The notes under the pieces are model-generated. The model was not told the origin of the DNA, ran no database searches, and saw nothing but the letters and a program-made list of their open reading frames with translations. The position numbers and the translations under genes are program-made. Of a stretch of DNA of 64,000 bases, positions 5,184 to 57,317 are shown piece by piece. This DNA comes from Sphyrna mokarran (lineage: Eukaryota): the NCBI GenBank assembly GCA_024679065.1, contig JAGIQG010000016.1:1922001-1986000 (forward strand), read 5' to 3'. Position 1 is the stretch's first letter. Each line of letters begins with the position of its first letter.

Positions 5184-5257
5184 AATTTTCACATTCTCAG
5201 AGCTTCTCTCAGTGCCTTACAGTTGTTGCAATTTAACTGATCTTTATTTAATTTTAG

Positions 5258-5539
5258 ATGCACCTCAGAATCTCTCAATGACTTTTCCTGGCATGATTAA
5301 CTCTTCATCAATCAATATAACTGAGGGGAACTCGACCGTGTTAATCTGCTCTGTCGAGAGCTTCCCAGCTTCTAACCTGACCTGGAGACATCATAATGTC
5401 ACAGTGAACAGAACAAGCTCCAACAATGAGCTGTGGTTGGTGATTCCTCACATTACACCCAGGGACACTGGAGACTATCAGTGTGTGGCAGAGAATGAAC
5501 ATGGAGCAATAGAGGGGTCCATCACCATCACTGTGGAAC
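5258..5539 (+). CDS. Gene 1, Ig repeat exon 1 of 4
   Basis: ttttag|ATGCACCT..GAAC|gtgagt, 282 bp, phase 1-1; ICSVESFPASNLTW...DTGDYQCVAENEHG. Confidence 0.93.
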
Positions 5540-5853
5540 GTGAGTGTACAAAGACTGCAACATCACACGCACTCAAACACACTCTCATGCACACTCAAAA
5601 ACACATAGAAATATCTAGAGACAGACATGCACATCCTATGCTAAAATTCATGAAATATACACAGGGATACACAGACACTCAGACACCGTTTGTTAGTCAC
5701 TACATCCACCATCATCAATATTCAGCCCCTCTACCACTAATGCACAGTGGCAGCAGTTTGGATCATCCACACAGTGCACTGCATCAACTTGTCAATGTTC
5801 CTTCAACAGCAAGGCAAGGGCAGCAGATGCATGGGAACACCACTGCCAACAAG

Positions 5854-6188
5854 ATGATGAGGTTTAGATAGGGTGGATAATGATAGCCTTTTTCCTAGGA
5901 TGGAGAAAGCTAGCACGAGGGGACATAGCTTTAAATTAAGGAGTGGTGGTTATAGGACGGATGTCAGAGGTAGGTTCTTTACCCAGAGGGTGGTAAGAGT
6001 ATGGAATGCCCTGTCTGCGTAAGTTGTAGATGCGCCATGTTTGGTGGCGTTTAAGAAGTTAGTAGATAAGTTTATGGACGAAAAGGGAATGGTTTAGGTT
6101 AGAGGGTCATGGCTTTTTCCTAATTGGTCGGCGCAACATCGAAGGCCGAAGGGCCTGTTCTGCGCTGTAATGTTCTATGTTCTATGTT
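5854..6188 (+). mobile_element. Young CR1 3' fragment
   Basis: Matches 4845-5183; TSD AACAAG at 5848-5853 and 6189-6194. Confidence 0.92.
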
Positions 6189-6567
6189 AACAAGCTCCCC
6201 ACCAAGCTACTTACTATCTTGATTTGGAAATTTATTGGCTATTCCCTCACTGTCATTGGATTAGAATTCTTGAACTCTGTCCCCAACAGCACTCTGAATA
6301 TGGACTACAGCAGATCAAGAAGGCAACTCAGCTTATAATGGGGCAGTTAGGGATGGCAATGAATGCTGGTCTTATCAGCAATAAGCATATCTTGTATAAG
6401 AACAGTGAAAAACACACATACTCAGTGGACATTATAAATGTAACTTAGCAACTTATGCAGAGGAAAGATATCCTGAAATGCAAATAGATATCATATAAAG
6501 AGAGAAGAAGCATGGAGTCTTACTGTGCATTGTGTTTTCTCACAAGAAAATCTCCCTTTGTTCTTAG

Positions 6568-6849
6568 ACATACCACGGAATGTCTCACTGAGTTCCCCTG
6601 ATATGATTAATGGTTCATGGATCAATATAATTGAGGGGAATTCGACAGGGATCATCTGCTCTGTCGAGAGCTTCCCAGCTTCTAACCTGACCTGGAGACA
6701 TCTTAATATCGCAATGAACAGAACAAGATCCAACAATGAGCTGTGGTTGGTGATTCCTCATGTTACACCCAGGGACAGCGGAGTATATCAGTGTGTGGCA
6801 GAGAATGAACATGGAGCAGTGGAGGGATCCATCACCATCACTGTGGAAC
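6568..6849 (+). CDS. Gene 1, Ig repeat exon 2 of 4
   Basis: tcttag|ACATACC..GAAC|gtgagt, 282 bp, phase 1-1, intact Ig Cys/Trp/DxGxYxC. Confidence 0.93.
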
Positions 6850-6879
6850 GTGAGTGTGCACAGAGTTCCACATCTCACA

Positions 6880-6906
6880 AACACACACACACACACACAC
6901 ACATAC
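6880..6906. repeat. (CA)n microsatellite
   Basis: Directly visible. Confidence 0.9.
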
Positions 6907-7068
6907 ACGACAAAGTAGTCACTGGACTAGCAGCCCCTCCACCACCTTCAACATTCACTCCCTCCACCTGCGACGCAGTGACAGCTGTGTGTACCATCTA
7001 CGAGATGCACTGCAGCAATTCACCAAGGCTCCTTAGGCATCACCTTTCAAACACAGCACCTTTCTTAC

Positions 7069-10000
7069 TGAGGTAGCGTGCCTCATTAGGGGGCATGTTC
7101 TTGGAAGGTCATGTGATCCATTCAGCCAATTGGAGTGGAGGGCATGAATCATGGAACTGAGCATGAATGTTCCCTGCAGTCAGGAATCTGGAGTCATGGA
7201 ATACAATTGCTTTTATGTCACCCTTTTAAATAGTCATTTTCCTCTAATAAATTGTTCATCCATTGATCTACTTGGTGGTCACCCATCTTTGAAGGTACTT
7301 CATTTGGCGACAAGGATCAATGGGAGTGCCTTCCTATTGCTGCAGAAATCGGAGAGTAGACCTCGTGTGGTAAACAAGCAGCAAACATGTTCAACAACAT
7401 GTTCAAGTATTAAAATGCCCCTTTTTGGAAAACTTGACCCATTCAACCTAGCACTGAGCAGCGGGTGCAATATGTCAAAAGCATGCATTTTATTTAAGGC
7501 CAATTAAACCTGGAAGGAGGCAAGCAGCAGACAAATATAAATAGCTGATAAGGGATCTAACTTCTCCAGATGCACCCGACACCAAAATCTTTGAGGAGCT
7601 TGTTGAATTGATTAAGGATCATTACTGTCTCAGTGATCATTCAGTGATAAAATTTAATTTGACTGCAAGAACCCCAGGGGAGTGGATAACGGCATTCATG
7701 ACACACCTAAGGCAATTGGCTTAATAAAGTTTGGGTCTTCATTCAATGACATGCTGAGAGACAGATTAGTCTGCAGCATTAATAGTCAACCATTCAGAAT
7801 GGAGGTGGATACTGGTGCCTCCCTACAGTTATAGAACATAGAACATAGAACATTACAGCACAGAACAGGCCCTTCGGCCTTTGATGTTGCGCCGACCAAT
7901 ATAAAAAGCAATGCCCCTCCAAACTAAACCATTCCCTTCTCTTCCATATACTTATCAACTAACCTCTTAAACGCCACCAAACTTGGCGCATCTACAACTG
8001 CTGCAGGCAGGGCATTCCACTCCCGAACCACCCTTTGGGTAAAGAACCTACCTCTGATATCCGTCCTATAACTATCACCCCTTAATTTAAAGCTGTGTCC
8101 CCTCGTGCTAGCTTTCTCCATCCTAGGAAAAAGGCTATCACTGTCCACCCTATCTAAACCTCTAATCATCTTATATGTTTCGATTAGGTCCCCTCTTAGC
8201 CGCCTCCTTTCTAACGAAAACAACCTCAAATCCCTCAGCCTCTCTTCATAAGACCTGCCCTCCATACCAGGCAACATCCTGGTAAACCTCCTCTGTACCC
8301 TCTCCAATGCCTCCACATCTTTCTTATAATGTGGGGACCAGAACTGCACACAATACTCCAAGTGCGGCCGCACTAGAGTTTTGTACAGTTGCAACATGAC
8401 GTTGCGGCTCCGAAATTCAATCCCCCTACCAATAAAAGCTAAGACTCCATATGCCTTCTTAACAACCTTCTCGACATGACTGCCTACTTTCAGGGATCTA
8501 TGCACATACACACCAAGATCCCTCTGTTCATCTAGACTACTAAGAATCCTACCATTTGCCCTATACTCTACACATTTATTATTTCTGCCATAGTGCATTA
8601 CCTCACACTTTTCCACATTAAACTCCATTTGCCACCTCTCGGCCCAGCTCTGCAACTTGTCCAAGTCCCTCTGCAAACTATAACACCCCTCTTCACTATC
8701 TACCACTCCACCGACTTTAGTGTCATCTGCAAATTTACTAATCCATCCTTCAATACCCTCATCCAGATCATTTATAAAAATTACAAACAGCAGGGGCCCC
8801 AAAACAGACCCCTGAGGTACACCACTTGTCACCGAACTCCACGATGAATATCTCCCATCAACCACCACCCTCTGTCTTCTATCTGCTAGCCAATTCCTAA
8901 CCCAATTAGCTAAATCACCCTCTATCCCATACATCTGCATTTTCTGCAGAAGTCTTCCATGGGCCACCTTATCAAACGCCTTACTAAAGTCCATATATAC
9001 CACATCAACCGCCTTACCCCCATCCACCTCCTTAGTCACTTTTTCAAAAAACTCAATGAGGTTAGTAAGGCACGACCTACCCTTCACAAAACCATGCTGA
9101 CTATCTCCAATCAATTCATTACTCTCTAAATAACTATAAATCCTATCCCTAATTATTCTCTCCAACACTTTGCCCACCACAGAAGTAAGACTCACTGGCC
9201 TATAATTCCCTGGAACGTCTCTCTTCCCCTTCTTGAACAAATATAGAGGAACAAATATAGAGGAACAAATGTTTTGTTATTTACAAGGAGGAGTTCAGCC
9301 CCCTACAATTAAGAAGCATGATGGCTATGCTGGTAACATATATTGGGGATGATTTGAGGATCCTAGAAGCAGCAACAATGTCCCTAATTCACTAGCAGAA
9401 GTCAGCTCAACTGCATCTAATAATAAAAGGCCAGAAGCTCGGTTTAATGGGCTGAGCTTGGCTTCACCAAGTTAAATTAAATTGGATAGAAATCTTCAAG
9501 ACCTATAATGAAAACTTCCAGAATGTTTCCAAAAAGGATCAGGAGGTGTTTGAAGGTGAATTAGGCAAGTTTCAGGGTCTAAATGCAAATATGTGGCTGG
9601 GTCCTGAGACCATGGCCAAATTTAACAGAACCTGACCTATACCCATGCCTTACATGATAAAGTTGAGTCTGAACTCGAATCTGGAAGAATTAGACATTAT
9701 TAGGCCAGTACAGTTTTCGGAGTGGCCAACACATATCATGCCAGTAGTTAAGCCAGTCAGAACTATAGGGATTTGCAAGGACTACAAATTGACATTCAAT
9801 TAAGCATCAAAATTAGATAAATATCCAATACCAAGAATTGAAGATTTGCAAGCTAAATTTGCAGGAGGTTTAACTTATACTAAACTTGATATGAGCCATG
9901 TATATCAACAATTTGAATTAGATAAGGCGTCAACAGAACTTGTTACAATCAACACTCACAAAGACTTATACCAATGTACTTGGCTACTCTTCAGGGTATC

Positions 10001-10649
10001 ATCGGCATGTGAAATTTTCCAGCTCACGATGGAAAACTTACTACAGAATCTATTAAAGTTGGTTGTCTACCTAGACAACCAACTTTACTGATTACACAAG
10101 TGTCTGAAGAGGAACATCCAGCATATTTCAAAGAAACTTCAAAAAGATTTAAACAGGCCGGACTGAGGCTAAAAAGGGAAAAATGTACCTCTGGGCTCAA
10201 GAAATGACATGTTTAGGGTTCAGAGTAGATGCAAATGAGCTGTAACTTATGGAAGAGATTTCAAAGCAATTAAGGAAGTACCAGCCTCCTGAAATATATC
10301 AGAATTGAAATCTTTTTTAGGCATGGTAAGCTATTGTGGGTTCCTTATTCCCAATCTTTGGCACCCCAACACACACTGTTCAAGAAACACCAGAGAAGGT
10401 ATGGAAAGAATATCAGAAAGAGGTCTCTGAATGTATTTAACTGCAGTCATCCACTCTCTTAGTTAATCTTGACTCCTCAAAAGAGATAATTATTACTTGG
10501 GACATAGGTCTGTATGAAATCAGATAGGTTTTATCAAGTGTTGGAGGATGACAGCCTTTATATTACTCTCTATAAATAGATGTTTCCCTTTAAATATATT
10601 GTTCGTTCATCTTACTAGGTGCTCACCCAAATTTGAAGATATAAAGTCA
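7069..10649 (+). mobile_element. Degenerate Ty3/Gypsy LTR retrotransposon, interrupted by a CR1
   Basis: TG..CA LTR 7069-7302 followed by PBS TGGCGACAAGGAT (tRNA-Ser-like) at 7305-7317; gag start MPLFGKLDPF; protease EVDTGAS near 7800; RT AGG..TKLD..TINTHK..VVYLD at 9846-10091; partial 3' LTR ending 10649; the host repeat resumes on both sides. Confidence 0.85.
7831..9240 (-). mobile_element. Young 5'-truncated CR1 LINE with open RT frame
   Basis: 438-aa ORF nearly identical to 2813-5092; (CATAGAA)n tail at 7831; candidate TSD TATAGA. Confidence 0.97.
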
Positions 10650-11054
10650 CCTATCAGGACAAGGGCAACAGCTATATGGGAACACCACTGCCAACAGATT
10701 CCCAACCAAGCTATTTACCATCTTTATTTGGAAATTTATTGGCCATTCCCTCACGGTTATTGGATTAAAATCCTTGGACTCTGTCCCCAACAACACTCTG
10801 GGTGTATCTATGCCACATGGACTACAGCAACTCAGCTTCTAACGGGGAAATTAGGGATGGGCAAGAATGCTGGTCTTACCAGCAATGTGCACATCTTGTG
10901 AAAGAATAGTGAGAAACACACATATTCAGTAGTCATTGTAAATGTGACTTTGCAACTTATAAAGAGGAAAGACATCCTGAAATGCAAATAGACATCAGAT
11001 AAGGAAAGAGGAAGCATTGTGTTTTCTCACAATAAAATCTTCCTTTGTTTTTAG

Positions 11055-11336
11055 ACATACCACGGAATCTCTCAGTGAGTTCTCCTGATATGATGAATGA
11101 TTCATGGATCAATACAACTGAGGGGAATTCTATAGTGATAATCTGCTCTGTCGAGAGCTTCCCAGCTTCTAATCTGACCTGGAGACATTTTAATGTTCCA
11201 ATAAACAGAACAAGATCCAACAACGAGCTGTGGTTGGTGATTCATCACATTACATCCAAGGACACTGGAGATTATCAGTGTGTGGCAGAGAATGAACACG
11301 GAGCAGTGGAGGGGTCCATCACCATCACTGTGGAAC
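11055..11336 (+). CDS. Gene 1, Ig repeat exon 3 of 4
   Basis: ttttag|ACATACC..GAAC|gtgagt, 282 bp, phase 1-1. Confidence 0.93.
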
Positions 11337-11912
11337 GTGAGTATACACAGACTTCAACATCACACACACAAATGGGTATACATAATTAGGCATCTGTACA
11401 CAATCCCAGATATGCAGCAAAACCTGAATAAGAGTCAGCTTGAGATGAGAAGTGACAAATAACATTTGTGCTACCCAAGTGTCAGGCAACTCCTGTCTCA
11501 AATAAGAGATTTTAACAGTCTCCCCTTGACATTCAATGCTATTTACCATCGCTGACTCCCCCAGTATCAAAATCCTGGGGGTTACCACTGACCAGAAATC
11601 TAACTGTACCTAGCCATATCAACACTACATCAACAATCCAAGTTAGAGACTGGGAGTTCTGCAGTGAATAACTCACCACCATCTTTCCAAGGACGATTAG
11701 AAATGAATAAATGCTGTCTTAGCCAGCGACACTCAACATCCTGCGAATAAATAAAAACAAATACATGGGAGGAGAGACCACTGTCAATGTTGATATTGGA
11801 TTTTGCAATGAGGAAAGATATTTTAAAATGCAGATAGCTATCAGTAGAGAGTGATGAAGCATGGACCCTTGCTGGGTACTGAGTTTGCTCACAACGAAAT
11901 CTTTGTTTTTAG

Positions 11913-12194
11913 ATTCACCACGGAATGTCACAATGACTTCTCCTAATATGATTAACTCTTCATGGATCAATATAATTGAGGGGAATTTGACAGAGATAAT
12001 CTGTTCTGTCAAGAGCTTCCCAGCTTCTAACCTGACCTGGAGACATCTTAATGTTACAATGAACAGAACAAGATCGAACAATGAGCTGTGGTTGGTGATT
12101 CCTCACATTACATCCAGGGATACTGGAGACTATCAGTGTGTGGCAGAGAATGAACATGGAGCAGTGGAGGGGTCCATCACCATCACTGTGGAGT
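11913..12194 (+). CDS. Gene 1, Ig repeat exon 4 of 4
   Basis: ttttag|ATTCACC..GAGT|gtgagt, 282 bp, phase 1-1. Confidence 0.93.
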
Positions 12195-12510
12195 GTGAGT
12201 GTACAGATACATTCTTTTGTTCTTTACCATCGCGGTTTCAGCGAAGTCAATGGCATCGTTTTAATTCTTCACCAATTTTCTTCACCAGCTTTTGCTCACC
12301 TGTTCCAACCTGAGCTGATGTGACTCAGGCTCAGATTCTGTTCCAAGGAGATCAGAAATGAGGGAGGGAATTCCAGGTTGAGGGTCTAGGCAGTTGAAAG
12401 TATGACGCTAATGGCGGAATGATGAAGTCCGGAATTGGAGGAGCGCAGAGATCTTGGAGGATTAGCGGAGGTGGGGATGAGCTGCTGATTCTCCTGTGTT
12501 CCTGTTCCAG

Positions 12511-35600: not shown

Positions 35601-36500
35601 CCTCATTCTATTCCTGCTCTCACTCTCCCGCGGCGCAGGCAGCAATCCTGAAATTACTTCCTTTGCGTTCCTCTTTCTCAGCTGTCTACTTAATTCCCTA
35701 TAATCCCTTTTCATGACCCCTTCCTTCTTCCTGCCTATGACATTGCTCTAATTTATGTTGAGGGAAAAGAAAACTACCCAGGCCTCTTTGCAAACTCCTT
35801 CCGGTTTACACTTTAAAAAAAAACTCGAAAAGTTAGTTTTAAAAAAAAATCACTCTAGCTTACCCACAAGCTCTCCACTCACAAATCGCTGCCTCTCTGC
35901 TATGATCCCCAAGGAACAATGAGGTCGATTCCTTAAGGTGAGTAACTTTTAAAGGGGGAGAAAAAACTAACCAGGCCTCTTTGCAAACTCCTTCCAGTTT
36001 ACACTTTAAAAAAATACTCGAAAAGTTAGTTTTAGAAAAAAAATCACTCTAGCTTACCCACAAGCTCTCCACTCACAAATCGCTGCCTCTCTGCTATGCT
36101 TCCTAAGGAACAATGGGATCAATTCCTTAAGGTGAGTAACTTTTCAAGGGAAAAAAGACTACCCAAGTCTCTTTGCAAACTCAAAGAGAGATCAAGCTCA
36201 AAGAGCAACACAGCATGGGAAACAGGCCCTTCGGCCCAACGAGCCCGCGCCGCCGTCATAACTTTATAGTAACAATCCCATTTTCCTATTCTAATTTTAG
36301 GTTATTCCTAATATGGAAGAATCTCAATATAGGAACAAATTGTTTCCCAATCAGCCTAAGAGCTAATTTGTGGGATGGGAAACTCCTTCCAGTTTACAGT
36401 TTAAAAAAAACTCAAATAGTTTAAAAAAAATCACTCTAGCTTACCCACAAGCTCACCACTCACAAATCGCTGCCTCTCTGCTGTGCCCCCCAAGGAATAA
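32630..36500 (-). mobile_element. Near-full-length degenerate CR1: 5' tandem monomers, ORF1 esterase (SGNH-like) remnant, ORF2 EN+RT, tail
   Basis: VISGLLPAPR..NAWLREW...GFQFLD.W (ORF1); FRKDREGGKRGGGVALL, YRPP, LDLVL (EN); RT motifs; tail at 32630. Confidence 0.92.
35760..36500 (-). repeat. Three ~190-bp tandem monomers at the CR1 5' end (third interrupted at ~36180-36380)
   Basis: TCACTCTAGCTTACCCACAAGCTC..CACAAATCGCTGCCTCTCTGCT occurs at ~35850, ~36044, ~36431. Confidence 0.93.
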
Positions 36501-38974
36501 TTCTTAAAGAAATTTTGTTTGATTAAAGGTCCCTAGTCAGTCATTTGAGTCATATCTGAAGTGAAATATATCATGCTCATCTTAGCTAAATTTAAGATGC
36601 AAAACTTTAGACCAAAGTGGGCTCCATATAACACTTTGGAGTTTCTGACTTGAAGCACAACAATAGTGAGAGGATTTGAGTATAGGAGTCGGGATATTTT
36701 GCTGCAGTAATTCAGGGCTTTGAGTATTGTATGCAGTTTTGCTCTCCTATTCTGAGAAAAGACATTCTTGCTATTAAGCGAGTCCAACGAAGGTTCACCA
36801 GACTGATTTCTGGAACAGCATGACTGACATATGAAGGAGGACTGGATCGACTAGGCTTGAACTCATTAGAATTTAGAAGAATGAGAGGGGATCTCATAGA
36901 AACATAAAAAATCCTGATGTGACTGGACAAGCTAGATGTGGGAAGAACGTTCCCAATGTTGGGGAAGTGCAGAACCAGGGATCACAGTCTAAGAATAAAG
37001 GGTAAGTCACTCGGTACTGAGATCAGGAAAAACCTCTTCATTTGGAAAGGTATGAGCTTGTGAAATTCTCTACCATTGCTGTTGGGGCCAGTTTGTTAGA
37101 TAATGTTCAAAAGGGGACTGGGCGTGGCCCTTGCGGCTAAAGCGATCAAGAGTTATGGACAGAAAGTGGGAGTGAGATCCTGAAAATGCATAATGAACCA
37201 TGATCACATTGAATGGCGGTGCAGGTTTGAAGGGCCAAATGGCCTGACGCGTACCGGACATCCTCGGGCCTCACCTTACTATAACACTGTAAAACACGCA
37301 CACCCAGATGCACGCACACAGACACAGACACACACTCGCACTACACATACATGCATGTATAGCACTAAATAAAGATGTGGAGTGATCACACCAAAGCCCA
37401 GACGACTTGTCCAGTTTCACATCCTCTCCTAATATAGAGAACTGTGTTAACACTGACAGTTGGCCCAAAGCCAGTTGCCCTCTTACCCAATGCAGTCAAG
37501 AGAGTAAAGATCAACTCTGCCCCGATCCTGGAAAAATGAACATCAGTAGAATGATATCAGCACCCATTAGTTCTATATCCAACAGGATTCATTCTCCAGC
37601 TCCAGGACTCATACTGCTGTAAGTAAAATGTTTCCTATTCAAGACAAATTTTTTGTGTACAGCATAAACTCTAGATGTCCCAAAGCACTTTTCAATGAAG
37701 TTCACCTTTTTTATCAAAGTATGATGATTGTTGTAATATTAGTAATGTAGCAGCCAATCCGCGCACAGCAAGATCCCACATACAACAACTTGATTATGAC
37801 CCAAATCATCTGTTTTTTCAGTGACATTTGTTGAGGAATAAATGTTGATTCCAGGATACTGGGGGAAACTCCTCCCACTCTTCTTTCAAATAGTGGCTAT
37901 GGAATTTTTCACACCTACCCAAGGAGGCAGACAGAGCCCCTCAGTTTAATGTCTCATATTGGACTAATTTTCAGGAGTGATAGTTGGGTGGATTGTTGAC
38001 AAAGTCTATTCACCGTAGGTAGTTATTTTGTTTTGAAATACTGTGTCAAGCACCGAGTTCTGCACTAAACCTGGCATTGAAAAGCCACCTTTCCAAACAT
38101 TCACCCGCCATTAGCTTGCTGAGACCTCACCCATTCCGAATGCACGTGAGCAATCACTCTCGTCCCTCTCTTTATTATGTCAAGCTCTTCCATCTGACTC
38201 CCTTCATCCATCCCAGTAAAATTCCATCTCTCATGAGAAACTAACACCCAAACTTTTGTTGGATTATATGGATGGCACTGTCAGTTCTTTCTGTCTGAGA
38301 CAGTTTACAGGATTTGTTGACAAACTGTTCAGAGCAGCCATTATGTTCAGGAGTTCTAATTACTAATCAGACTGTTAAACCAGGCTGCTGTTCACCAAGA
38401 TTTGCATTCACACATTCAATATCTCATGTATGTCAGCAAATACTAAAATGAAGCACAGTTAAATTTTAAAAAAACCTTGCATTTTGATACTACAGTTATC
38501 AGTTCAGACACAGTGCCTTGTTCAAATTAACCAGCTATTTTGTAGAATAGTATTCGCAATAGCCTTGTTTCTAAGGAAATGAAACTTAAAATAATTCCCA
38601 GTGAAATGCAATAGGCACAATATCTTTTCTTTTTATTCACTTACAGGAAACAGGTATTGCAGGCTGCGTCAGCATTTATTGCCTAAGCATAATTGGCCTT
38701 GAGAAGTTGAGGGCGAGCTGTCTACGGCACTGTCTACATTGCAGGTACATCCACTGTGCTGTTAGAGGTGACATGGGTTTGGGTCAGCACATACCCTGAC
38801 AATACAGTCCTCATTTAGTAATGACTTTCTTTGTGTGCGTGCATTGTATGATTATGAGTGATTGTGAGTGTGCAATTCTATGTGCAGATGTGTAATTATA
38901 CATGTGTTTGTATGTGTCAATCTGAGTTCATGAGACAGTGCATGTGGGTGGTTTTGTGTTAGTGTTTCTAAGTG

Positions 38975-43860: not shown

Positions 43861-44599
43861 ATATATTTAAGAGGTTGCATGATTGCTTTAAGAATTGATC
43901 AAATGATTTGATAGTGATGCCATTAAGATGTTTCACAGGCTGCTGTTAGTTTCATTTTCTACTATGTACAAGCAAGAGCTCCTTGAATATATCTTGTTAG
44001 TTTGAATCTGTGTTTGAAAATCACATCTTTTGTTTTTGATTAAAACCCACAACAACCCCACAAGTATCTTCTAGAGTGAGAGCCTTGAGCATTGCAACAT
44101 TCCTGGTCACAGTAACTTGCTGAGCTAACTCAATCAACATCTTTGGAGATGGCTCATCCTCTATTGAAACCAGGCTGCTTGCACATTAATCGCAAGGAAA
44201 TTTATCTAATAGACTCATTCATAACCCAAACTGACTGCACCTGGATTCTTTTTGACTTGACTCCATCCCTTGACTCCCAACAAGGATATGCCTGCCTCCA
44301 CCTGGTGTGCATCAACAGCTGGGAGGTACTAACCAGTAAATGACTCAAAATCCTCAGCACTAACACAACCCACCATGGTGATAATCTCTGTGTTATTGAT
44401 GCCTGTGCCAATTCACTAGTGCTGACCTCAGAGGATGCCTCAGGTGTCACCTGCAAGTCAGCTGGGCCCTCCAGATCTTGCCAACCCCCCAAGGAATAGC
44501 TGCCAAGGGCATCATGGGCAACAAGGCATGAATGACTGAACATCAGCAGCTAAGTAAAGCAAACTGCTATAGAGCCTCCTTGCTGCCCAGCCCTGCTGG

Positions 44600-46760
44600 A
44601 CCCCTGCCATCACCTGCTTTCCATCCTCCTGTTCCTTATATGGCAGGTCCTCTAGTCCTGCTAGTGACAATCCTCCTCCTTCTTCAGTTGGTCTCCCCAT
44701 TGCCGTGCAATGTTTTGTAAGATGCAGCAGACGATAATCAGGAAGGAGACATGCCCAGGGTCATAGAACATAGAACATTACAGCGCAGAACAGGCCCTTC
44801 GGCCTTCGATGTTGCGCCGACCAATATAAAAAGCAATGACCCTCCAAACTAAACCATTCCCTTCTCTTCCATATACTTATCAACTAACCTCTTAAACGCC
44901 ACCAAACTTGGCGCATCTACAACTGCTGCAGGCAGGGCATTCCACTCCCGAACCACCCTTTGGGTAAAGAACCTACCTCTGATATCCGTCCTATAACTAT
45001 CACCCCTTAATTTAAAGCTGTGTCCCCTCGTGCTAGCTTTCTCCATCCTAGGAAAAAGGCTATCACTGTCCACCCTATCTAAACCTCTAATCATCTTATA
45101 TGTTTCGATTAGGTCCCCTCTTAGCCGCCTCCTTTCTAACGAAAACAACCTCAAATCCCTCAGCCTCTCTTCATAAGACCTGCCCTCCATACCAGGCAAC
45201 ATCCTGGTAAACCTCCTCTGTACCCTCTCCAATGCCTCCACATCTTTCTTATAATGTGGGGACCAGAACTGCACACAATACTCCAAGTGCGGCCGCACTA
45301 GAGTTTTGTACAGTTGCAACATGACGTTGCGGCTCCGAAATTCAATCCCCCTACCAATAAAAGCTAAGACTCCATATGCCTTCTTAACAACCTTATCGAC
45401 TTGACTGCCTACTTTCAGGGATCTATGCACATATACACCAAGATCCCTCTGTTCATCAACACTATTAAGAATCCTACCATTAGCCCTATACTCTACACAT
45501 TTATTATTCCTGCCAAAGTGCATTACCTCACACTTTTCCACATTAAACTCCATTTGCCACCTCTCGGCCCAGCTCTGCAACTTGTCCAAGTCTCTCTGCA
45601 AACTATAACACCCCTCTTCACTATCTACCACTCCACCGACTTTAGTGTCATCTGCAAATTTACTAATCCATCCTTCAATACCCTCATCCAGATCATTTAT
45701 AAAAATTACAAACAGCAGGGGCCCCAAAACAGACTCCTGAGGTACACCACTTGTCACCGAACTCCACGATGAATATCTCCCATCAACCACCACCCTCTGT
45801 CTTCTATCTGCTAGCCAATTCCTAATCCAATTAGCTAAATCACCCTCTATCCCATACATCTGCATTTTCTGCAGAAGTCTTCCATGGGCCACCTTATCAA
45901 ACGCCTTACTAAAGTCCATATATACCACATCAACCGCCTTACCCCCATTGTTCCCTTGGAGCAGCATGGAGAGGCAGCAATTTGGGAGAGCGTGAAGTTC
46001 GAGTGTTAAGTCGTTTTTAACTTTTCTCTTTGTTTAAAATAGCGAGCGGGGGTAGTTTTTGCCGTTTTTTTATTTAAACTAACTGGAAACCGGAAGTTGT
46101 CATTAGGAGGCTGCCGGTAGTTGTAGTTTTTCTAGCTATATAAGGGTCATGGTGGAGGACAGCGGAATCTCATCTTCAACGGGCCCGTAGGCATCATCAG
46201 CCATGACCTCAAAGGAAAGCCCTGTCCCCCAGGAGCCATCCTGGCAGCCTAGGCTGGTCTTCAAAGAGCCTAAGGATGTCCATCCTTCTCAGTACATTCC
46301 ATGGATAACATGCACATACCTGCACGATGATCATCTGATGGTCGCAAATGATTAGGACAGAGGAGTGGAACCCCTTTCATTTGATGAATGGTTGCCCCTC
46401 AGCTTGCAAAGATTGCAGGGCAATGTGTGTCCTATCCACTGCCCCCCCTGGATATGGGGCATCCTGGCAATGGCAAGGAAGCTTGCAGCCTGGACCTCCT
46501 GCTGACACTGTCCAACATCAAAGTGTATTTATTGGCCTGCCCAGGTGAACAAGACTCTGTAACCTGGCAAACACATCTCTGCACTGACACTTTTGAGATC
46601 CCACACTGCTGAAGTGATCCTTTGGTGTATAAGGCCCATTGTCAACTTCACCCTTTCAGGACATTGCTATCCTACTTCATGACCAACAATTGCAGCCCCC
46701 TGCCCTCTTTCCTAAAGGACTGCCAATTGGCTGCTCTTGGAGTAGCCTCCTTTTGCTACT
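44600..46760 (-). mobile_element. PIF/Harbinger transposase remnant interrupted by a CR1
   Basis: Minus-strand, frameshifted IA.MPHIQG.AVD.THIAL, KGFHS, ICDH, GWLLGDRA; LHHDPGHVSFLIIVCCILQNIA reads through the CR1 TSD. Confidence 0.8.
44765..46142 (-). mobile_element. Young CR1 insertion: minus-strand RT/3' end (44765-45948) plus inverted 5'-UTR segment (45944-46142)
   Basis: 372-aa ORF; 8-bp TSD AGGGTCAT at 44757-44764 and 46143-46150. Confidence 0.93.
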
Positions 46761-47337
46761 CCTGAGCCGCTGCCTCCTCCTCTCTGCTGTCACCAGGATA
46801 GCCAGCTCTAGATCAATGGGTTTGATATCCATTCTACATGGTGGGGGTTAGAGACTGAGAGAGAGAGATTGATGGATAATGTTATTTTTGCATCTACTCC
46901 AACACCTTTAAACATGAAAGGGAGGAGGCCATTCAGTTGCCTCTGGGCTGCTTTATGGGAACAGAAGGAGATCTTCATTCACAGTGTTGGCACATTGAAG
47001 CATTTTTACTCATTACTGAAATCTAAGTACAAGGCTTAAACAGAACATCTTTCTAGTTCAAGGGGTGAGGCAAGTGTTGACACATGACTTTGAGACATCC
47101 TGAGGTGATGATCGATGTGTTACAAATGCAGTCCTTCATTATTTCTCTTTCTTAAAGTCTTGTGACTCTCTGCAGAGCACCTTTCATACCACACAGAATC
47201 CAATTACTCTGTAAAGACATTGATTAAAAGCAGTTCTGATCTCTCGAGAGCTGTCGGACAAGAGGTGAGGTCTCATTAACTCCTTTCTCTTTCAGAGCTT
47301 AAGAGTAAGAAGCTGGTGAAATATCTGGGAGTGGACA

Positions 47338-47377
47338 ATGATCAGGAAATCTTACTTCCTCCTATCACTTCTCCAAG
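47338..47377 (+). CDS. Siglec-like gene 2, signal-peptide exon
   Basis: ATG ATC AGG..CAA G|gtaata = MIRKSYFLLSLLQ, phase 1, joins V exon as ..LLQVGLSQDW; possible acceptor ttcag at 47291-47295. Confidence 0.8.
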
Positions 47378-48617
47378 GTAATATCATCGTCAGCTCGGAC
47401 AGATTTATACTTAACAGTCATTTTAACAGATCATTTTTATTCAGCTTTGATTGGAAATCAATTCAGCAGTGACCCCATGTACAAACTCACATCAAGTCCC
47501 ATTCACCCATCACTCTGTGCTCACCAACTCCCCGTCCAACAGCAGAGTTAGAGGAGAGCAGAGACCTGAAAGTTGAAACTGGAGCAGGTTAGAGATAGAT
47601 AGTGGAGTTGGAAGTTAATGGATGAATTGCCATTCAAGGATGAGGATCTTAAAATGAAGGCTAGCTGAACTATGGCAGTGGACGATACAGCCAATGTGTT
47701 GAGATGAGATGAATGGATACAAATTGAGTATTCAAGTCTGTCCTGATACTCAAGCTTTGATAGGAATGGCCAGAAATGTGTGTTCCATTCCTTTTCTTGG
47801 AATTTTCCAGTTGACAACACAGCAGCTCCGAGAATAGACAGGCTGTTCAGCATTACTCTAGCATGGTAGGAACTTTGATAAAGGTGCAACAAATAGAAAT
47901 AGAGAACAAGGCAAAGCTGTGTTTGAAGGTGTCAAATATTCAGTTTGCATATATGTCTTTGCTCTCAACACAGCCAGAGATCAGGCTAGAGCCAATTTGC
48001 CCATGCGTTTCAGTGTCTGCTGGAGCCAGATCAGTGCTGAGCTTGGGAACAAGTCAGCCTACAATGCCGCAAAGGAATCAGTGCTACAATAATAGGGGCG
48101 TTTGGATCAGAAATAATCCTTTAGACAATGGCGTCTCATAAGGACATTTTTATGGTAAGGCAATAAATTCTGGCCTAGCCAGCAAAGCCTCATCCTCTAA
48201 AAAACTAAACTCGTAAATCTAATTCAATCTGCTTTTTGAAGATCTTACAGTGAGGTGAAGCTAATTATGATTCATGATGGTTATGATGATGGGAGTTCTG
48301 ATGGCTCCTCATCCATTGTCCTGTCTTGTCAATAAGCACTGAATGAACCTCCATTGGTGCGTTTTGTAGACATTGTGTTGGATGGAAGAAAGGTTTCATT
48401 AAACAGGGTCCTGAGGACTATGAGCCAATATAGGATAAACTTGTCCACTCCTCTGTCCAGGATTCTCTTCCATCCATTGTGTAACCTTGGGGAATTCCTT
48501 GTGTGTTCTGTAGACGTCTACACTGCAGCCACTGTGCACCAGTGACAGAGGGGGTGAATATTGAGTTTAGTGGATCTACAAATAATGCATTTTAAATATT
48601 GATATTTTTCTCCCCAG

Positions 48618-48980
48618 TTGGATTATCACAGGATTGGAAAGCTGATATTCCACAAGAGGTGACAGCTCTCGAAGGTTCATGTGTACAGATTCCACGTCAT
48701 TACAGTTATCCATCACAGTTGGCAAAACAACCGCGAGTTGGAGTCTGGTTTAATAACAAGAAATGGAATGCATCATCAATAACCTTGCATTCCAAGAATA
48801 ATATTTTTGAGTCAGTACAATTCCGCCATCGGACCCGGCTGTCTGGAAACCTGAATGATGGTGACTGTTCCCTGATTATAAACAAAGTCCGATGGGAAGA
48901 TGGAGGACCTTATTTTTTCAGAGTAGAATTTCACATGGGTCCGAACCATAATTATCCTGTAACCCAGCTTCACGTTTCCA
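48618..48980 (+). CDS. Gene 2, Siglec-type V-set domain exon
   Basis: ccccag|TT..TCCA|gtaagt, 363 bp; W..P.EVTALEGSCVQIP..GVWF..FRHRTRLSGNL.DGDCSLII..EDGGPYFFRVE; essential Arg codon at 48920-48922. Confidence 0.92.
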
Positions 48981-49339
48981 GTAAGTTCCGTATTACAATT
49001 ATTCAACAATTCGCATTCAACAATCGATGGGAAATAACCCAGATGATGAGGTTTACAAACTGAAACAAAACACAGCTTATTATAATGCAGTGTCTGATTA
49101 TCAATAACCTGATGATAGCTTCTAGTTCAGTTCTAAAGCAATCTCTAATACTCACTTTAATGTCAATAGTTAAACAACCTTCCAATAGCAGGGCAACTAG
49201 AATTGTATGCAGTCTTTGTTCTTTCCTTTTCTTTTTTTCTTTTAGGATGGGGATAGAGGGAAAGATAGGGTGATTTAGTTAAGTTGGACAGCAAGGTCGG
49301 TGCTGATTTGGAGGCCGACGGGGCTGTTCCTGTGTTGTA

Positions 49340-50090
49340 ATTTTCTTTGTTCTTTGCTCCAAATATAGCGTTATCAATGTCTTGTACAGTTGTAACATAA
49401 ATTCACAACTCCTGCACTGTGCTGTCACTGATGAAGACAAGCGTGCAAAATGTCTTCTTCACCACCCAGTCTATCCATGACATCACTTTCAAGGAATTAT
49501 ATACTTCCTGCGCTCAAGTCTCTCTGTTCAACAACACTCCCCAGGGTCCTGCCATTAACTGTACATGTTTTACCAAAATGCATTTATCTGAATTAAACTC
49601 TATCTGCCATTCCTCAGCCCACTGGGCCAGTTGCTCAAGGTCCCGTTGTAGTCTGAGGAAACCTTCTTCACTGTTCACTATATCACCAATTTTGGTGTAA
49701 TCTGCAAACTCACTAACCATGCTTCCCACATTCTCATTCTATGACAAATAGATCCAGCACCAATCCCTATGGCATACCACAGGTCACAGGCCTCCAGTCT
49801 GAAAAGCAATCCTTTACCACCATGCTGTCTCCTAGTGGCAAGCCAATTTTATACCCAATTGGCAAGTTATCCCTGGATCCAATCTGATCTAACTTTACTG
49901 ACCAGTCTACCATGTGGTATCTTGTCAAAGGTTTTGCTAATGTCCATGTAGACAACATCTACTACACTGGCCTCATCTATTTTCTTGGTCACCCTTTGAA
50001 AAAACTGTAGAGAATTTTGTAAGACATGATTTCCCATGCACAAATCCCAATCAGTCCTTGCCTATCCAAATGCATGTAGATCTTGTCCCT
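49340..50090 (-). mobile_element. Degenerate CR1 RT fragment
   Basis: VSEFADYTKIG..EEG..RLQRDL..WAEEWQ. Confidence 0.85.
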
Positions 50091-50649
50091 TCATAGATGT
50101 TGACAATAGAGTCCTTTTCTCAAGAATCACCTTAGGATACCAAAATCTGTTAACAGCCAATGAACTAATTCCTGAATTTCACATAAGTACTTTCTGAATT
50201 CCTGACTGGATTTCTTAGTGACTAAACTATGCACAGCAAGCTCCCACAAATAGGAATGTGATCAATAACCTGATTATCTGATTCCGGTAAAAGTAAATCA
50301 CTGCAAATGCTGGAGATCTGAAATTAGAACAGAAAATGCTGGAAAAACTCAGCAGGTCTGGCAGTATCTGTGTAAAAAGAAATGAGGGCAACCTTTTCCA
50401 TTTTGCCTGCCGTGGGAATTGTAGTAGATAGGGGAGCGGGCTATGCAAAGGTCTGTTGAACTCAGGTGGGATTTTCCGTTTTAAGCTGCTGACAGAGTTT
50501 CAGCAAGTCTAAAAATAGGAAATGATTTAATGATTATTGTAATCTCTCAGTTCTGATTTCATCCTTGTATTCGCTTGTAAGACTGTGATTTCTATTTGAA
50601 TTAATGCTTCATGTTATATTTATCTAAAAGGATCCATTCTCTGTGTTGG

Positions 50650-50943
50650 ATTTCACAGATAAACCCACGATATTCCCTGCTGAAATTATTGCAGGAAAGC
50701 GTGTGAACATAAGCTGCGCCTTCAATACAACGTGCAATGGAACAGCACCAGTCTTAACCTGGGACACTCCCACTGACATACCTGGATCAGTCTCAAAGAC
50801 TCTAACTCAGCATGGTGTCACTCTGACCTATACTTCTGTTCTGACGCTGATCCCATCACTCAAACACCACAGACATAATCTTACCTTTAGAGTGAGATAT
50901 CCGTTTGTTTCATCAGAGCGGATCTTTACACTGACTGTACAAT
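50650..50943 (+). CDS. Gene 2, C2-set exon (canonical acceptor mutated to GG; probable start 50659 via cryptic AG)
   Basis: Colinear paralog of 1871-2164 including ~100 bp of upstream intron; donor T|gtgagt at 50944. Confidence 0.85.
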
Positions 50944-52019
50944 GTGAGTACAGATATAATTAATTGCACATTAGCTATAGTAGTCGACACTGTGCACAGC
51001 AAAATCCCATAAGCAGCATAATGAAAGCAAAATCTTGTGAATAATGAAAATCTGGAAGAAAAGAAGGAAAAGTTCAGCTGGTCTGGGAGCATCTGAGCAA
51101 GGTAAACAGAGATAATATTGAGTCCTTGGTAGCTCATGGAGTGGCCAAGAGACATCAGTGGGGGGGGCCTTTACCAGGACTTGTGGCTGGCACGCTGTGC
51201 TGATTAGCATAGTGAAATCAATATTTCAATATGATTAGCGAGTCCAGGACAGTCTCTGGGCTTGCTAATGTCCCTCCACCCCACCAGGCATAGTTCCCAC
51301 CAGTAAGATTACAAGTGCTCCCCAACAACAGGGAGCAGACATGCTCACCCGCTGGCGGGGATAAAAGCCATTGAGACTCTTCTGTTGGGGGGAGGAAGCG
51401 AGTGGTGGAGTTGGTGCAGGCAGGTGCATCCTAGCACTGCCCAAGGGGAACAGGGCAGTGCCTAGGGGACACCAGGTAATACTAAGGGGGCTGAACCAGA
51501 AGGAATGGGGATTACTGGAGAAGGGATCAGTGCTGTGGTGGGGGGACCCTCTGCCATTCTGCAATGCGATTGATGGGGTAAGGAGTGATGGGGAGATTGG
51601 ATCTGGCCACTAGAGGGGGTGGGGGAGGGTTTGCGGAAGTGGAAGGGCAGAGATTGGGCTGGCCTGAGTGGAATCCAGTAGAACAGCAATCAAAGGATTA
51701 GAAAGTCACGGGGGGAGAGGGGGTTGTATGTGTGTGTGGGAAGGCCACTGATCGGGAGATGGGGGGGGTAATTGGGGGGCTAGTGCGCATACACTGATCT
51801 CCCCACTGACAGATTGGTTCACTGTGCATGTGCCAATGCATAATATGCCACCAGCCTCTCGGACCGATGAGTCGCCACACCCGAAGTTTCCAGCATGAAT
51901 CCCTCTGAGACATTGTGGGATGCACAGAGTGTCAAAGATTCATTCAAGTAAATAAGCCCAAAAAATGGGCTGAAAAATGGGATGTCACTTACTGAAACTA
52001 GAGCACTGGCAGTAATTTT

Positions 52020-55000
52020 CAAATCTTGTCTAGCCATGGGTTTGGTGCCACAGGATGAAAAATTGCTAAACTTGTCTCATTATCAAAAAGGGAAGTAGTA
52101 ATAGGCCAATAAGTTACAGACCAGTCAGTCTAACATGGCGGGAAGGTCACTGAAAAGAATCCTGAGAGACAAAACATATCTATCCTTGGATAGACACAGA
52201 TTAATCAGAAATGATCAGCATGGATTTGTTCAGTGAAGGTCACATTCGACACATTTAATCAAACTCTGTTGAGCTGGTAACTAGGATTGTTGATGATGAT
52301 AATGCATTTGATGTTGCCAAATAGACTTTAGCAAAGCTTTTGATAAGGTCTCTCTTGGCAGTCATGAAAGTAATGGCCCATGGGATCCAAGGCAAAGTGG
52401 CACATTGGATCCAAAATTGGCTGAGAGGCAGGAAGCAGAGAGTGATGGTGCAGGGATGTTTCTGTAACATAAAGCCTGTCTCTAGTGGGGTTACACAGGG
52501 CTCCATGCTGTGTATATTAATGATTTGAGCTGGAACATAGGAGGTATGGTCAAGAAGTTAGCAAATGGCACAAAAATTAGTAGCTTGGTAAACAGTGAAG
52601 AGGATAGCTGTAGACTGCAGATGGATATCAATGGACTGATCAGATGGGCACATCATTGGCAAATTGAAAAGAAAAATTATGGTAATATATTTGGGGAAGG
52701 TTAACAAAGTAAAGAATTATGCTATGAATGGTAGGATATTGGGAAAGCACTGGGATCAGTGGACGGCACGGTGACACAGTGGTTAGCATTGCAGGCTCAT
52801 AACACCAGGGATCTGGGTTCAATTCGCAGCCTGTCTGTGCAGAGTTTGTACATTCTCCTCGTGTCTGCAAGGGTTTGCTCCGGGTGCTCTGGTTTCCTTC
52901 CACAGTCCAAAAGACATGATGGTTAGGTGGATTGCCCATGCTAAATTTTCCTTCTGTGAACCTGAACATGTGCATGAGTGTGGCAACTTGGGTATTTTCA
53001 CAGTGACATCATTGCAGTATTAATGTAAGCCTGCTTGTGACACTAATAAATAAACTTTAAGATCAGAGGGACTTTGGAATGCATACCCAGAGATCTCTGA
53101 AGGTGACATAACAGGTAGCTAAGATAGTTAAGAATTCATATGGAATACCTGTCTTTACTAACCGAAGCATAGAATATAAATGCAGGTGTATCGTGCAGGA
53201 ACTGTACAAAATCTGGTTCAGCCATAACTGGAGTACTTTTGGTCACCATGTTAGGGGAAAGATGTGATTGTACTGGAGTGCCAAGGTCTTTACCAGGATG
53301 CTGCCTGAACTAAATGATTAAAGTTATGAGGAAAGATTGGTAAGCTGGGGTTGTTTTTCCTTGGAGGAGCGAAGGCTGAAAAGGATCTGATACAGATGTA
53401 TCAGATTTTGAGGGGCATAAAAAGGATGGAAAGAGATGTTACTTTTTGAAATTAGCAGAGGAGTAAATAACCAGAAGGCATAGATTTAAGAGATAGAAGG
53501 CTAAGAGGGGAGCTGAGGAGAAACTTACTCATTCAGAGGGTGAAAGGAGTCTGGAACTCCCTGCCTGAAAGGATGATCTTGCAACATTGGAGGAGTATTT
53601 AGATATTCACTTGCACTGCCGTAACCTCATGGGATATGGGTGGGCTAAGCACTGGAAAATGAGATTCATGTAGTCAGACCTTTATCGAGTGGTTTGGATA
53701 CAATGGACTCAATGGCCTCCTACAGTACCTAAAATGTCTATCAATCTATAAATCTATGAAACACAAGAGATCTTGAAGGGTCATCTCAAGGTGGATCTGA
53801 GAGGATCCCCCTAGCAGAGATATCTGAATCATCGATAGTCAGGAGTGAGGTGCCTGAAGATTGGAGGATAGCAAATGTTGAGCCTTTGTTTAAAAAGGGT
53901 TGCAGAGAAAAGCCTGGGAACTACCAGGCCAGTGAGCCTCACATCTCTGATGGATAAGTTGTTGGAAGGCATTTTGAGAGACAGGATCTACAGGCATTTA
54001 GAGACAAAAGGATTGATTAGGGACAGTCAGCATCGCTTTGTGAGTAGAAAATCATGTCTCACAAATTTGATTGAGTTTTTGATGGGGTAACCAACAAGGT
54101 AGATGAGGGCAGTGTAGTTGATGTTGTCTATGGACTTTAGCAAGGCCTTTGACAAGGTACTACATGATAGATTGTTGCAAAAGGTTAAATCTCATGGGAT
54201 CCAGGATGAGGTATCTAAATGGATACAAAACTGGCTTGAGGACAGAAGCCAGATAGTCATTATAGAGGGTTGTTTATCAAACTGCATGCCTGTGACCAGT
54301 GGTGTACCTCAGCCATTAGTGCTGAGTCCACTGTTATTTGTCATTTATATCAATGATTTGGATGAGAATATAGGTGGCATGGTTAGTAAGATTGCAGATG
54401 ACACCAAGTTTGGTGGCATAATGTATGTGAAGAAGGTTATCTCAGACTGCAACGGGGTCTCGATCAGTTGGGCTAATGAGCTAACAAATGGCAGAAGGGG
54501 GTTAATTTAGTTAAAATTTGTAGATTAAACCAGTGCAGGACTTACTCAGTTAATGATAGGACATTGGTGAGAGTTACAGAACAAAGAGATCTCGGGGTAC
54601 AGGTTCACAGCTCCTTGAAATTGGAGTCACAGGTGGACAGAGTGGTGAAGAAGGCATTCAGCATGCTTGGTTTCATTGGTCAGAACACTGAATACAAGAG
54701 TTGGGACGTCTTGTTGAAGTTGTACAAAACATTGGTTAGACCACACTTGAAATATTGTACATAGTTCTGGTCACCATTTTATAGAAAGGTTAATATTAAA
54801 CTAGAAATAGTGCAGAAAAAATTTACTAGAATGCTACCAAGACTTGATGATTTGAGTTATAAGGAGAGGCTGGATAGACTGCGACTTTTTTCTCTGGAGC
54901 ATAGAAGACTTCAGAGTGATCTTATTGAAGTTTATAAAATAATGAGTGGCATAAATAAGGTAGAGAATTAATATCTTTTTCCAAAGGTAGGCGAGTCTAA

Positions 55001-55580
55001 AATGAGAGGGCATCAGGTTAAGGTAAGAGGGGAGAAATACAAAAGGGTCCAGAGGGGGTAATTTTTCACATACAGGGTGATAAGCATCTGGAACAAGCTG
55101 CCAGAGGTAGTAGGAGAGGTAGGTACAATCTTGTCTTTTAAAAAGCATTTTGCCAGTTACATGGGTAAGATGGGTATAGAGGGATATGGGCCAAATGCGG
55201 GCAATTGGGACTAGCTTTAAAAAAAAGGGCAGCATGGACAAGTTGGGACAAAGAGCCTGTTTCCATGCTGGAAACCTTTAAGATTTTCTATGACTCTATG
55301 AATTTAGAATTAGGGGACAATGCCATTTCAAGGCTAAAATAATTTTTCTCTCACAGAGGGTTGTTGATGTTTGGAATTCTCTTCTCAAGAGCAATGGAAT
55401 AAACTCAAGGATGTGATAGATAGAATTTTGATTGACAAAGGAGTGAATAGTTAACAGCGGGCAAGGAAAGATGGAAAACTGGAGTTGAGGCCATATTTGG
55501 GTTAGCCATGATCTTATCGAATGGCAGAATAGGCTTGATTGACTGAATGGCCTGTTCTTGCTTCTAAATCTTGTGTTCAA
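52020..55580 (+). mobile_element. Stack of degenerate CR1 fragments (~52020-53760, 53800-55300, 55300-55580) with nested SINE 52761-53058
   Basis: Repeated RT motifs DFSKAFDKV, GVPQ, ADDTK and three separate 3' tails. Confidence 0.88.
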
Positions 55581-55722
55581 TCAACACTCTTTTCATGCAG
55601 TGTAAATTATTGTTCCTTTTACATATTGATATTCACGTGAAGTATACTGAAAAGTGAAGGATGAAAAGTTTCAAGAGTATATGTCTTTTTCAGTAATATT
55701 CAAGTTCTATGTTGATTTTTAG

Positions 55723-56004
55723 ATGCACCACAAAATCTTTCAATCACTTCTCTTGATATGATTAATGTTTCATGGATCAATATAATTGAGGGGAATTTGA
55801 CAGTGATAATCTGCTCTGTCGAGAGCTTCCCAGCTTCTAATCTGACCTGGAGACATCTTAATGTCACAATAAACAGAACAAGATCCAACAATGAGCTGTG
55901 GTTGGTGATTCCTCACGTTACATCCAGAGACAGTGGAGTCTATCAGTGTGTGGCAGAGAATGAACATGGAGCATTGGAGAGGTCCATAGCCATTACTGTG
56001 GAAA
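55723..56004 (+). CDS. Gene 2, single copy of the 282-bp Ig repeat exon
   Basis: ttttag|ATGCACC..GAAA|gtgagt, phase 1-1; near-identical to gene 1 repeat exons. Confidence 0.92.
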
Positions 56005-57317
56005 GTGAGTGTACAAAAACATTAACATTTTGTTTTTATTGTTTCAGGAAATGTGAGTACTTCTGGCAATTTTGATATTTAATGTCAATTCCTAATTACC
56101 CTTTCAGAAAGTGGTAGAGATTGAGCCACTTGCTTAAACTGTTGTGATCCATCTGGGTTGGGTGCATGCGCAGTATTGCTTTGTCCTAGATTGTCTGGAG
56201 CTTCTGGAGTGTTCTTAGAACTGCATTCATCCATGCTGCTGAAGAATATTCCCCCTCACTCTTGATTTGTGTATTTTCAATGTTGAACAAATTTTGTGAA
56301 ATCAAGAGGTGAGGATTCCCTCTGACCTACTCTCAGAACTCACCTTCTGGCCAATGGGAATCCAGGTAACCCCCAAGTCAGTGATAATGGGTGATATAAT
56401 AAAGGTAATGCCTTTGTACATCTAGGGAAGGTGATTACATCTAATGTTGTTGGAGATGACCATTGCCTGGCAATTGTGTGGCATGAATTTTACCTGCCAC
56501 TTATCAGCTCAAGCCTGAAAGTTGTCCCGGTCTTGCTGGATTTGGACATGGACTGCTTCAGTGTCTGAGCAGCCATGAGTTGTATCGGGCATAATGCAAT
56601 TATCAGCAAACATCATTCCTTGGTGGAATGAAAGTAAGGTCATTGATGAAGCAGTTGAAAATATTTAGCACATTAGCCAGAGAACCACCTATAGTGATGG
56701 AACTGAGATGACATGAGTTGCAACAGACATAACCAACTTCCCCTGTGTTATTTATGACTCCAAGCCCCAAAAACTCCAATTTTGCTGAGGCTCCTTGATG
56801 CCGTTTTTGCTCAAATGTTGCTTTCATGCCAAGAATAGTCATTCTCACTTCATCTCTGGAGTTCAGCTCTTTTGTCCATGTTTGGATCTAGGCTCTAATG
56901 AGTTCAGGAGCCAAGTGGTTCTGGTGGAATTGAAATAGAGCATCCATGAGCAGGTATTTGATGAGTGAAGCTTGATAGTGCTATTATGAGATCTGCCATT
57001 AGTTCACTGATGATGGAAAGTAGACTAATGGGGAGATAATTGGCTGTGTTGAGTTTGTTCTACTTATTATGGATATCATGGGAATTTTTCACATTGCTGG
57101 ACAGATGCCAGTATTATAAGTGAACTAGAATAGCTTGGTGCAGATAGTTCTGGAGCACAAGTCCTCACTGCAATTGCCAGAATGTTATCAAGGCCCACAG
57201 CTTTTTCAGCATCCAATCCCTTCAGTTATTTCCTGGTATCATATGGAGATAATGGAATTAGAAGAAGACTAGCACCTATGATGTTGAGGACTTCAGGGAG
57301 GAAGCTTGAGATGGCTG

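Follow-up and report, generated by a model that had tools for sequence, protein, structure and literature searches.

A 5'-inverted CR1 insertion in Sphyrna mokarran: a recurrent layout for which twin priming is the likeliest route

Results

A recurrent CR1 insertion with an inverted 5' monomer

The CR1 insertion at 44757-46150 of the window (the whole 64 kb stretch of Sphyrna mokarran DNA analysed here) is a real single event, in which one target-site duplication (TSD) encloses a tailed 3' piece and an inverted 5'-terminal monomer of the same element, and the layout recurs in the genome. The reading that we favour, with a probability of roughly 0.55, is twin priming on one RNA, the first cDNA having stalled early. 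The insertion and its surroundings comprise:

44535-44764, minus strand: host Harbinger transposase remnant, C-terminal side
44757-44764, plus strand: left 8-bp TSD copy AGGGTCAT, the last 3 nt of which also match the CR1 tail repeat
44763-45948, minus strand: CR1 3' piece with the C-terminal part of the RT, 3' UTR and short-repeat tail (reference positions 3038-4223)
45946-45948: inner (inversion) junction, 3-nt microhomology
45947-46144, plus strand: inverted piece, 198 nt, the 5'-terminal monomer of the same element, which begins at the 5' start and has an upstream-monomer-type end
46143-46150, plus strand: right TSD copy AGGGTCAT, its first 2 nt common to TSD and monomer
46143-46460, minus strand: host Harbinger transposase remnant, DDE side
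47296-47377, plus strand: likely signal-peptide exon of a CD22/Siglec-like Ig gene, ATG at 47338

The initial annotation had described a single 8-bp TSD around a minus-strand RT/3' tail and a plus-strand segment of about 200 bp from the CR1 5' monomer, and these parts of the description were borne out. The motif AGGGTCAT, which occurs four times in the 64 kb window counting either strand, borders both outer ends; its left copy is likely the first priming site and its right copy likely the second. The minus-strand piece (1,186 nt) is 98.6% identical to positions 4223-3038 of L040, a natural full-length copy, and contains an open 365-aa frame with RVT_1 at 44852-45946. Alignment to the full-length element placed the inverted piece at L040 positions 6 to about 199. 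It has no close match elsewhere in the window and at least 52 matches genome-wide at 93-97% identity (40 of 1,521 candidates scored; best 95-97%). In 14 of the 20 extended loci the monomer lies ~3.0 kb upstream of this 3' piece (its positions 1-1185 or more), in one orientation and at 96-99% identity. Consequently, segment and 3' piece belong to one 4.2-kb element of a young subfamily, of which the segment forms the 5' end. As the window piece ends like an upstream unit, the source RNA likely carried two or more monomers.

Three points of the earlier description required revision. The proposed 5-nt inner microhomology CCCAT shrinks to CAT (3 nt) when compared with the same subfamily, because these copies begin TC-ATTG and not CCC-ATTG; the outer microhomology is 2 nt, and each of the two is short taken alone. 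The monomer at 36060-36120, which had been offered for comparison, aligns over only about 46 nt (score 47, the highest shuffled score being 32) and is probably from an older CR1 family, the nearest RT piece upstream of it showing 67% identity. Finally, about 2.8-3.1 kb of CR1 sequence is absent between the two pieces, a loss that had gone unmentioned. The 20-mer across the inner junction occurs once in the 2.77 Gb assembly, and this search revealed no source locus or sibling of the chimera.

The element is ~4.2 kb long, with an esterase-type ORF1 (Lipase_GDSL_2) and an ORF2 with APE endonuclease and RT; in L040 the latter encodes 962 aa with Exo_endo_phos and RVT_1. The tail repeat unit is 7 nt and the commonest TSD calls are 4-5 bp. 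Esterase-type ORF1, short-repeat tail and short TSD are features of CR1-type LINEs, and by its predicted ORF1 and ORF2 domains, tail and TSD the family is assigned to this class. A TSD peak of 3-5 bp is given for L2, with CR1 called very similar, in the accessible text of PMC4245944. In some copies the monomer is repeated in tandem, with a unit of about 220 nt, and the full-length copies (n=51) fall into four 5' types. Most first cDNAs stop early (median 652 nt in 90 copies). Three tandem monomer-like units are also present at 35762-36510 (minus strand) of the window, where they probably form the 5' end of a CR1 that is older and diverged, and monomer arrays may accordingly be an old trait of these elements.

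The host repeat and the reality of the TSD

The claim that the host Harbinger frame reads across the TSD, as expected of a single event, was upheld by a gapless alignment to a DDE_Tnp_4 paralogue over one TSD copy, in which LQYDPEYAFCIIIVCCILHN of the paralogue lines up with the window frame. Paralogue L334, with a PF13359 (DDE_Tnp_4) match at E=1.6e-10, aligns across the insertion site; the two short Harbinger frames of the window itself gave no DDE_Tnp_4 match. In three host-repeat paralogues the target motif is single and the alignment runs on without gaps into the right flank of the window. As the host paralogues carry the motif once, an origin of the TSD as two natural host repeats is excluded. 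Short-read contigs of run X1, which may derive from the assembly's own sample, cross both outer junctions with zero differences, reaching only about 21-28 bases into the insertion. Among the contig joints displayed at the site there was no empty allele, runs from other organisms left the flanks uncovered, and none of the X1 pieces listed spans the inner junction.

Recurrence of the layout

A sampled version of the genome-wide count of TSD-flanked, 5'-inverted copies that had been proposed yielded nine inversions among 197 distinct CR1 5' starts including the window, seven of the nine with a TSD (4-9 bp); without the window the figures are 8/196 and 6/196. These counts are samples from motif searches and fetched flanks, not a census: they cover the first 100 of 373 monomer-start matches (nearly all examined), 30 of 374 monomer-end matches, 30 of 34 and 11 of 69 matches for a second subfamily, and 95 of 4,676 3'-end matches, all on contig C1. 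A reversed young piece adjoins 15 of the starts and a forward one adjoins nine. The 15 comprise the nine window-like inversions, four nested insertions and two loci set aside. Left out of the inversion counts were L101, which has an assembly gap, and L147, which has two tails. L006/L081, L092, L161 and L177/L282, taken as candidate inversions, turned out to be nested insertions.

Both outer ends are visible in all nine inversions, for which one algorithm, run with a permutation control, called TSDs of 8 bp (window), 6 bp (L042), 8 bp (L082), 2 bp (L083), 3 bp (L087), 9 bp (L131), 4 bp (L283), 5 bp (L284) and 8 bp (L317), the values for L083 and L087 being at chance level. The host repeat continues across the site in L131, L283, L284 and L317. 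The inner junction lies at the 5' start of the element in 7/9 and inside the monomer array in 2/9. No two inner junctions are the same and that of the window is unique in the assembly, which argues for independent events rather than copies of one chimeric source. The outer junctions have 2-3 nt in common with the element in the window, L042, L131 and L087, and small slippage-like repeats are found in L082, L283 and L317. L284 and L083 contain extra templated bases, which suggest end-joining there.

Two tests set the inversions apart from other copies. TSDs of at least 8 bp were found in 4/9 inversions vs 1/78 ordinary truncated copies (Fisher p=2.7e-4), and in 3/8 when the window was removed (p=2.1e-3); shuffled flank pairs gave 0.3%. 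At a threshold of at least 6 bp the excess was weaker (p=0.021) and without the window not significant (p=0.056). For the second test, a subfamily classifier predicted the 5' type from the 3' 1.2 kb; it was right for 35/51 copies in leave-one-out, most errors falling between two close types. The 5' and 3' pieces were of the same subfamily in 8/9 inversions, against 2.5 expected from 40 incidental 3' pieces (p=1.4e-4; without the window 7/8, p=7.4e-4), the remaining one, L283, being discordant or mosaic. Conversely, none of three look-alikes matched (nested L081, nested L282 and two-tailed L147). Both pieces of the gap-interrupted L101 match. Judged by its predicted types, a subfamily match denotes one lineage at one time, and is the same for one RNA or for two RNAs of one lineage.

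The gap and other junction classes

In 9/9 inversions, 440-3,815 nt separate the outer end of the inverted piece from the start of the tailed piece, the gap being about 220 nt greater for the window and L042. The putative second priming site thus lies far from the end of the first cDNA in every case, unlike typical L1. Sampling on 5' ends does not force such kilobase gaps, since L1-like events would appear as near-complete elements. A classical internal inversion, with an inverted piece derived from the element body, was seen in 0 of 190 truncated tails, a result compatible with a rate near 1%. Among the 256 tails with a visible 5' junction, to which these 190 belong, 18 loci are joined head to head to a body piece. 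Of these, 16 are nested insertions, and the other two are a stray 56-nt tail and a fold-back (L222).

Several further junction types were observed. Young CR1 copies frequently sit inside other copies of their own family (loci L081-L160 and L191-L295; 16 junctions among the 256 tails). The fold-back at L222, which has a 6-bp target repeat, inverts 87 nt at the CR1 5' junction. Deletions in the same orientation with the 5' end retained account for 16/182 rows, or 13/182 once three nested cases are removed, and are about as common as the inversions, so that a shared capture or switch route is possible. L316 and L323 are inserts of 5' monomers only, joined directly to the tail repeat; the resemblance of the monomer start to the tail unit suggests a template switch from the tail to the 5' UTR. 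L153, which lacks a tail, covers the element from its 5' start as far as position 2040; it is flanked by a 7-bp TSD-like repeat and is likely, from this structure, a product of internal priming. In L147 a truncated and a full-length copy of different subfamilies stand head to head with both tails outward, possibly from two RNAs primed from both ends of one cut.

The neighbouring gene and Penelope-like inserts

The window monomer faces the CD22/Siglec-like Ig gene, whose ATG (47338) is 1.2 kb off and whose acceptor at 47296 implies an exon upstream. The monomer contains motifs at 46090 and 46137 that we take to be ETS-like and TATA-like, respectively; in tandem monomer arrays the latter sits 32 nt before the start of the next unit. 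The monomer could act as a promoter or enhancer of this gene, for which it is a candidate only. Repeated Ig-domain exons occur at 5217-12200 and 47296-56075 of the window, the second set with a CD22-like V-set exon, and suggest a tandem Siglec/CD22-like cluster.

In 27/197 5' ends the CR1 sequence is broken at reference positions 193-214. The same inserted family accounts for 20 of these 27 (at least 17 mutual BLAST hits); it comes with a duplication of some 12-13 bp, and its insertion point falls at CR1 positions 195-207 in L159:3918-5942 and about 20 other loci. One such insert encodes a 674-aa RT plus GIY-YIG ORF (GIY-YIG below Pfam's cutoff), which marks the family as Penelope-like. The positions suggest a Penelope element that targets the TATA-like site of this CR1's 5' UTR; a literature search found no case of a Penelope element targeting a CR1 5' UTR.

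Discussion

Mechanism of the inversion

The initial annotation had proposed that shark CR1 can twin-prime, a mechanism documented nearly exclusively for mammalian L1. The single event, the same-subfamily 5' segment and the recurrence favour this view and twin priming is the likeliest route, whereas the gap is unlike that of L1 products. The geometry of the insertion, its origin in a single event, its recurrence, the longer TSDs and the subfamily match are observed. On this reading, the CR1 endonuclease would cut the target with an 8-nt stagger, and the first 3' end would pair with the tail repeat and be extended by 1.19 kb before stopping. The long overhang would enable the second end to prime on the same, multi-monomer transcript, pairing over 2 nt at some 200 nt from its 5' end, and the resulting cDNA would be extended to that end. 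The two cDNA ends would then be joined via the 3-nt microhomology and filled in, and the 2.8-3.1 kb between the pieces would never be copied. Priming on RNA, the use of a single RNA molecule and the order of these steps are what we infer. The longer TSDs fit the idea, found in the accessible text of PMC4245944, that second priming requires a longer overhang, and the tail-less L153 with its TSD-like repeat suggests that internal priming is possible in this CR1 family. Against twin priming stand the 440-3,815 nt gaps in 9/9 and the lack of body-derived inversions among the 190 truncated tails, some of which would be expected from priming at random sites, together with the extra templated outer bases of L284 and L083, the chance-level TSDs of L083 and L087 and the discordance of L283.

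A rather unlikely alternative is that the second target end primes close to the 5' end of a separate CR1 RNA from the same subfamily, after which the two cDNAs join head to head. Two RNAs would explain why the second priming site bears no relation to the point where the first cDNA stopped, L147 with its outward tails and discordant subfamilies points the same way, and the inverted U5/L1 chimeras provide a precedent (PMC4476161 and 10.1101/2024.12.14.628481, as far as their accessible text goes). However, the 8/9 subfamily match then requires a single active lineage, as could be the case if a cell expresses one source copy.

Capture of a cDNA, in which the stalled first cDNA anneals or jumps to the 3' end of a loose or broken-off 5'-end cDNA, copies it and is end-joined to the target with no second priming on RNA, we also hold to be unlikely. 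It would account for the inner junctions at the element's 5' start (7/9) or in the monomer array (2/9) and for the templated bases at the outer junctions of L284 and L083; the L222 fold-back and the frequent templated extra bases at ordinary junctions reveal DNA-templated synthesis in this CR1 family, and same-orientation captures of the 5' end make up 13/182. Still, it leaves the longer TSDs without a reason, and the clean, microhomologous outer junctions of the window, L042, L131 and L087 speak against it.

Two insertions, either a full-length copy placed head to head in an older copy and followed by a deletion or an inserted copy inverted later, are very improbable. Nested head-to-head cases are real (4/15 reverse-adjacent starts, beside nine forward-adjacent ones), but the deletion would have to stop exactly at the older TSD in seven loci, the host continues across one TSD copy, and the nested controls are discordant in subfamily where the inversions are concordant. 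Least probable of all is ordinary target-primed reverse transcription of a chimeric RNA, an antisense transcript of a head-to-head nested source locus, for although suitable nested loci exist (L081, L282), the window junction 20-mer is single in the assembly and the nine inner junctions all differ.

Comparison with known systems

Twin priming was described for human L1 by Ostertag and Kazazian (2001), as cited in the accessible parts of PMC4245944, PMC2912911, PMC12016303 and 10.1101/2024.08.27.596794, and L1 inversions and their microhomologies are described in PMC2912911 to the extent that its text is available. Judged from the available portions of this literature, twin-primed L1 copies resemble the CR1 inversions in the single TSD that encloses a tailed sense piece together with an inverted piece from further upstream, in the microhomology at outer and inner junctions, in TSDs at the long end and in an inverted piece that is usually the shorter. 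The differences, within the same portions, are in scale and frequency. L1 TSDs are 10-20 bp vs 4-9 bp in the CR1 inversions, and the L1 internal deletion has a median of 14.5 bp (10.1101/2024.08.27.596794), 46% of 287 L1 inversions being within 20 bp (PMC12016303), vs 0.44-3.8 kb here. Unlike in L1, the CR1 inverted piece reaches the 5' start or the monomer array, a feature that sampling on 5' ends selects. Inversions make up about 20% of L1 insertions, whereas they are rare in CR1 (no body-derived case in the 190 truncated tails).

In the inverted snRNA/L1 chimeras with U5, U1 and U2, as presented in the accessible text of PMC4476161, the second end is likewise thought to prime internally and to copy to the RNA 5' end, opposite to a truncated LINE; there the second RNA is an snRNA and the enzyme that of L1, whereas here the element's own 5' UTR is used. 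The cDNA snap-back of R2, in the available part of PMC11371274, and L222 share with the CR1 inversions an antisense element piece at a non-L1 5' junction. Snap-back duplicates sequence of the first cDNA, however, whereas the window's inverted piece comes from at least 2.8 kb upstream of the stop.

The accessible text of PMC4245944 reports 5' inversions in human cells only with L1, bar one Nimb-2 insert, and suggests that a 5-nt overhang is possibly too short for second priming. The zebrafish elements ZfL2-1 and Nimb-2_DR studied there in cultured cells are, like CR1, non-L1 LINEs with short TSDs; ZfL2-1 (TSD about 5 bp) gave zero inversions, whereas this CR1 yields them, mostly with TSDs of 6-9 bp. 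A literature search over titles and abstract openings found no report of a CR1 5' inversion, although the CR1 junction survey of Ichiyanagi and Okada (2008) may hold such cases, and no CR1 inversion is described in the accessible portions of PMC12350158, 10.1101/2024.12.14.628481, PMC5389967, PMC2718515 and PMC13343379.

Implications for CR1 biology

So far, 5' inversion has been regarded as an L1 trait in human cells, and second-end priming was considered possibly beyond LINEs with a short stagger (PMC4245944, in its accessible part). Natural CR1 inversions that favour the longest TSDs allow the idea about overhang length to be tested on genomic data, in a LINE group that is widespread among vertebrates. 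The kilobase gaps indicate that the second event is not necessarily tied to the end point of the first cDNA, unlike in L1. For repeat counts it matters that reversed-plus-forward CR1 pairs are not always two insertions. We tentatively raise the possibility of a distinct CR1 inversion route, in which a long stagger (8-9 nt) would give the second end a preferred priming site in the 5' UTR, which would be close to the RT in the particle, and the same access would let stalled cDNAs re-prime in the forward direction, giving the 5'-keeping deletions and the monomer-plus-tail inserts. If this holds, ~4% of the CR1 copies that bear a 5' end would scatter outward-facing promoter monomers freed from their ORFs.
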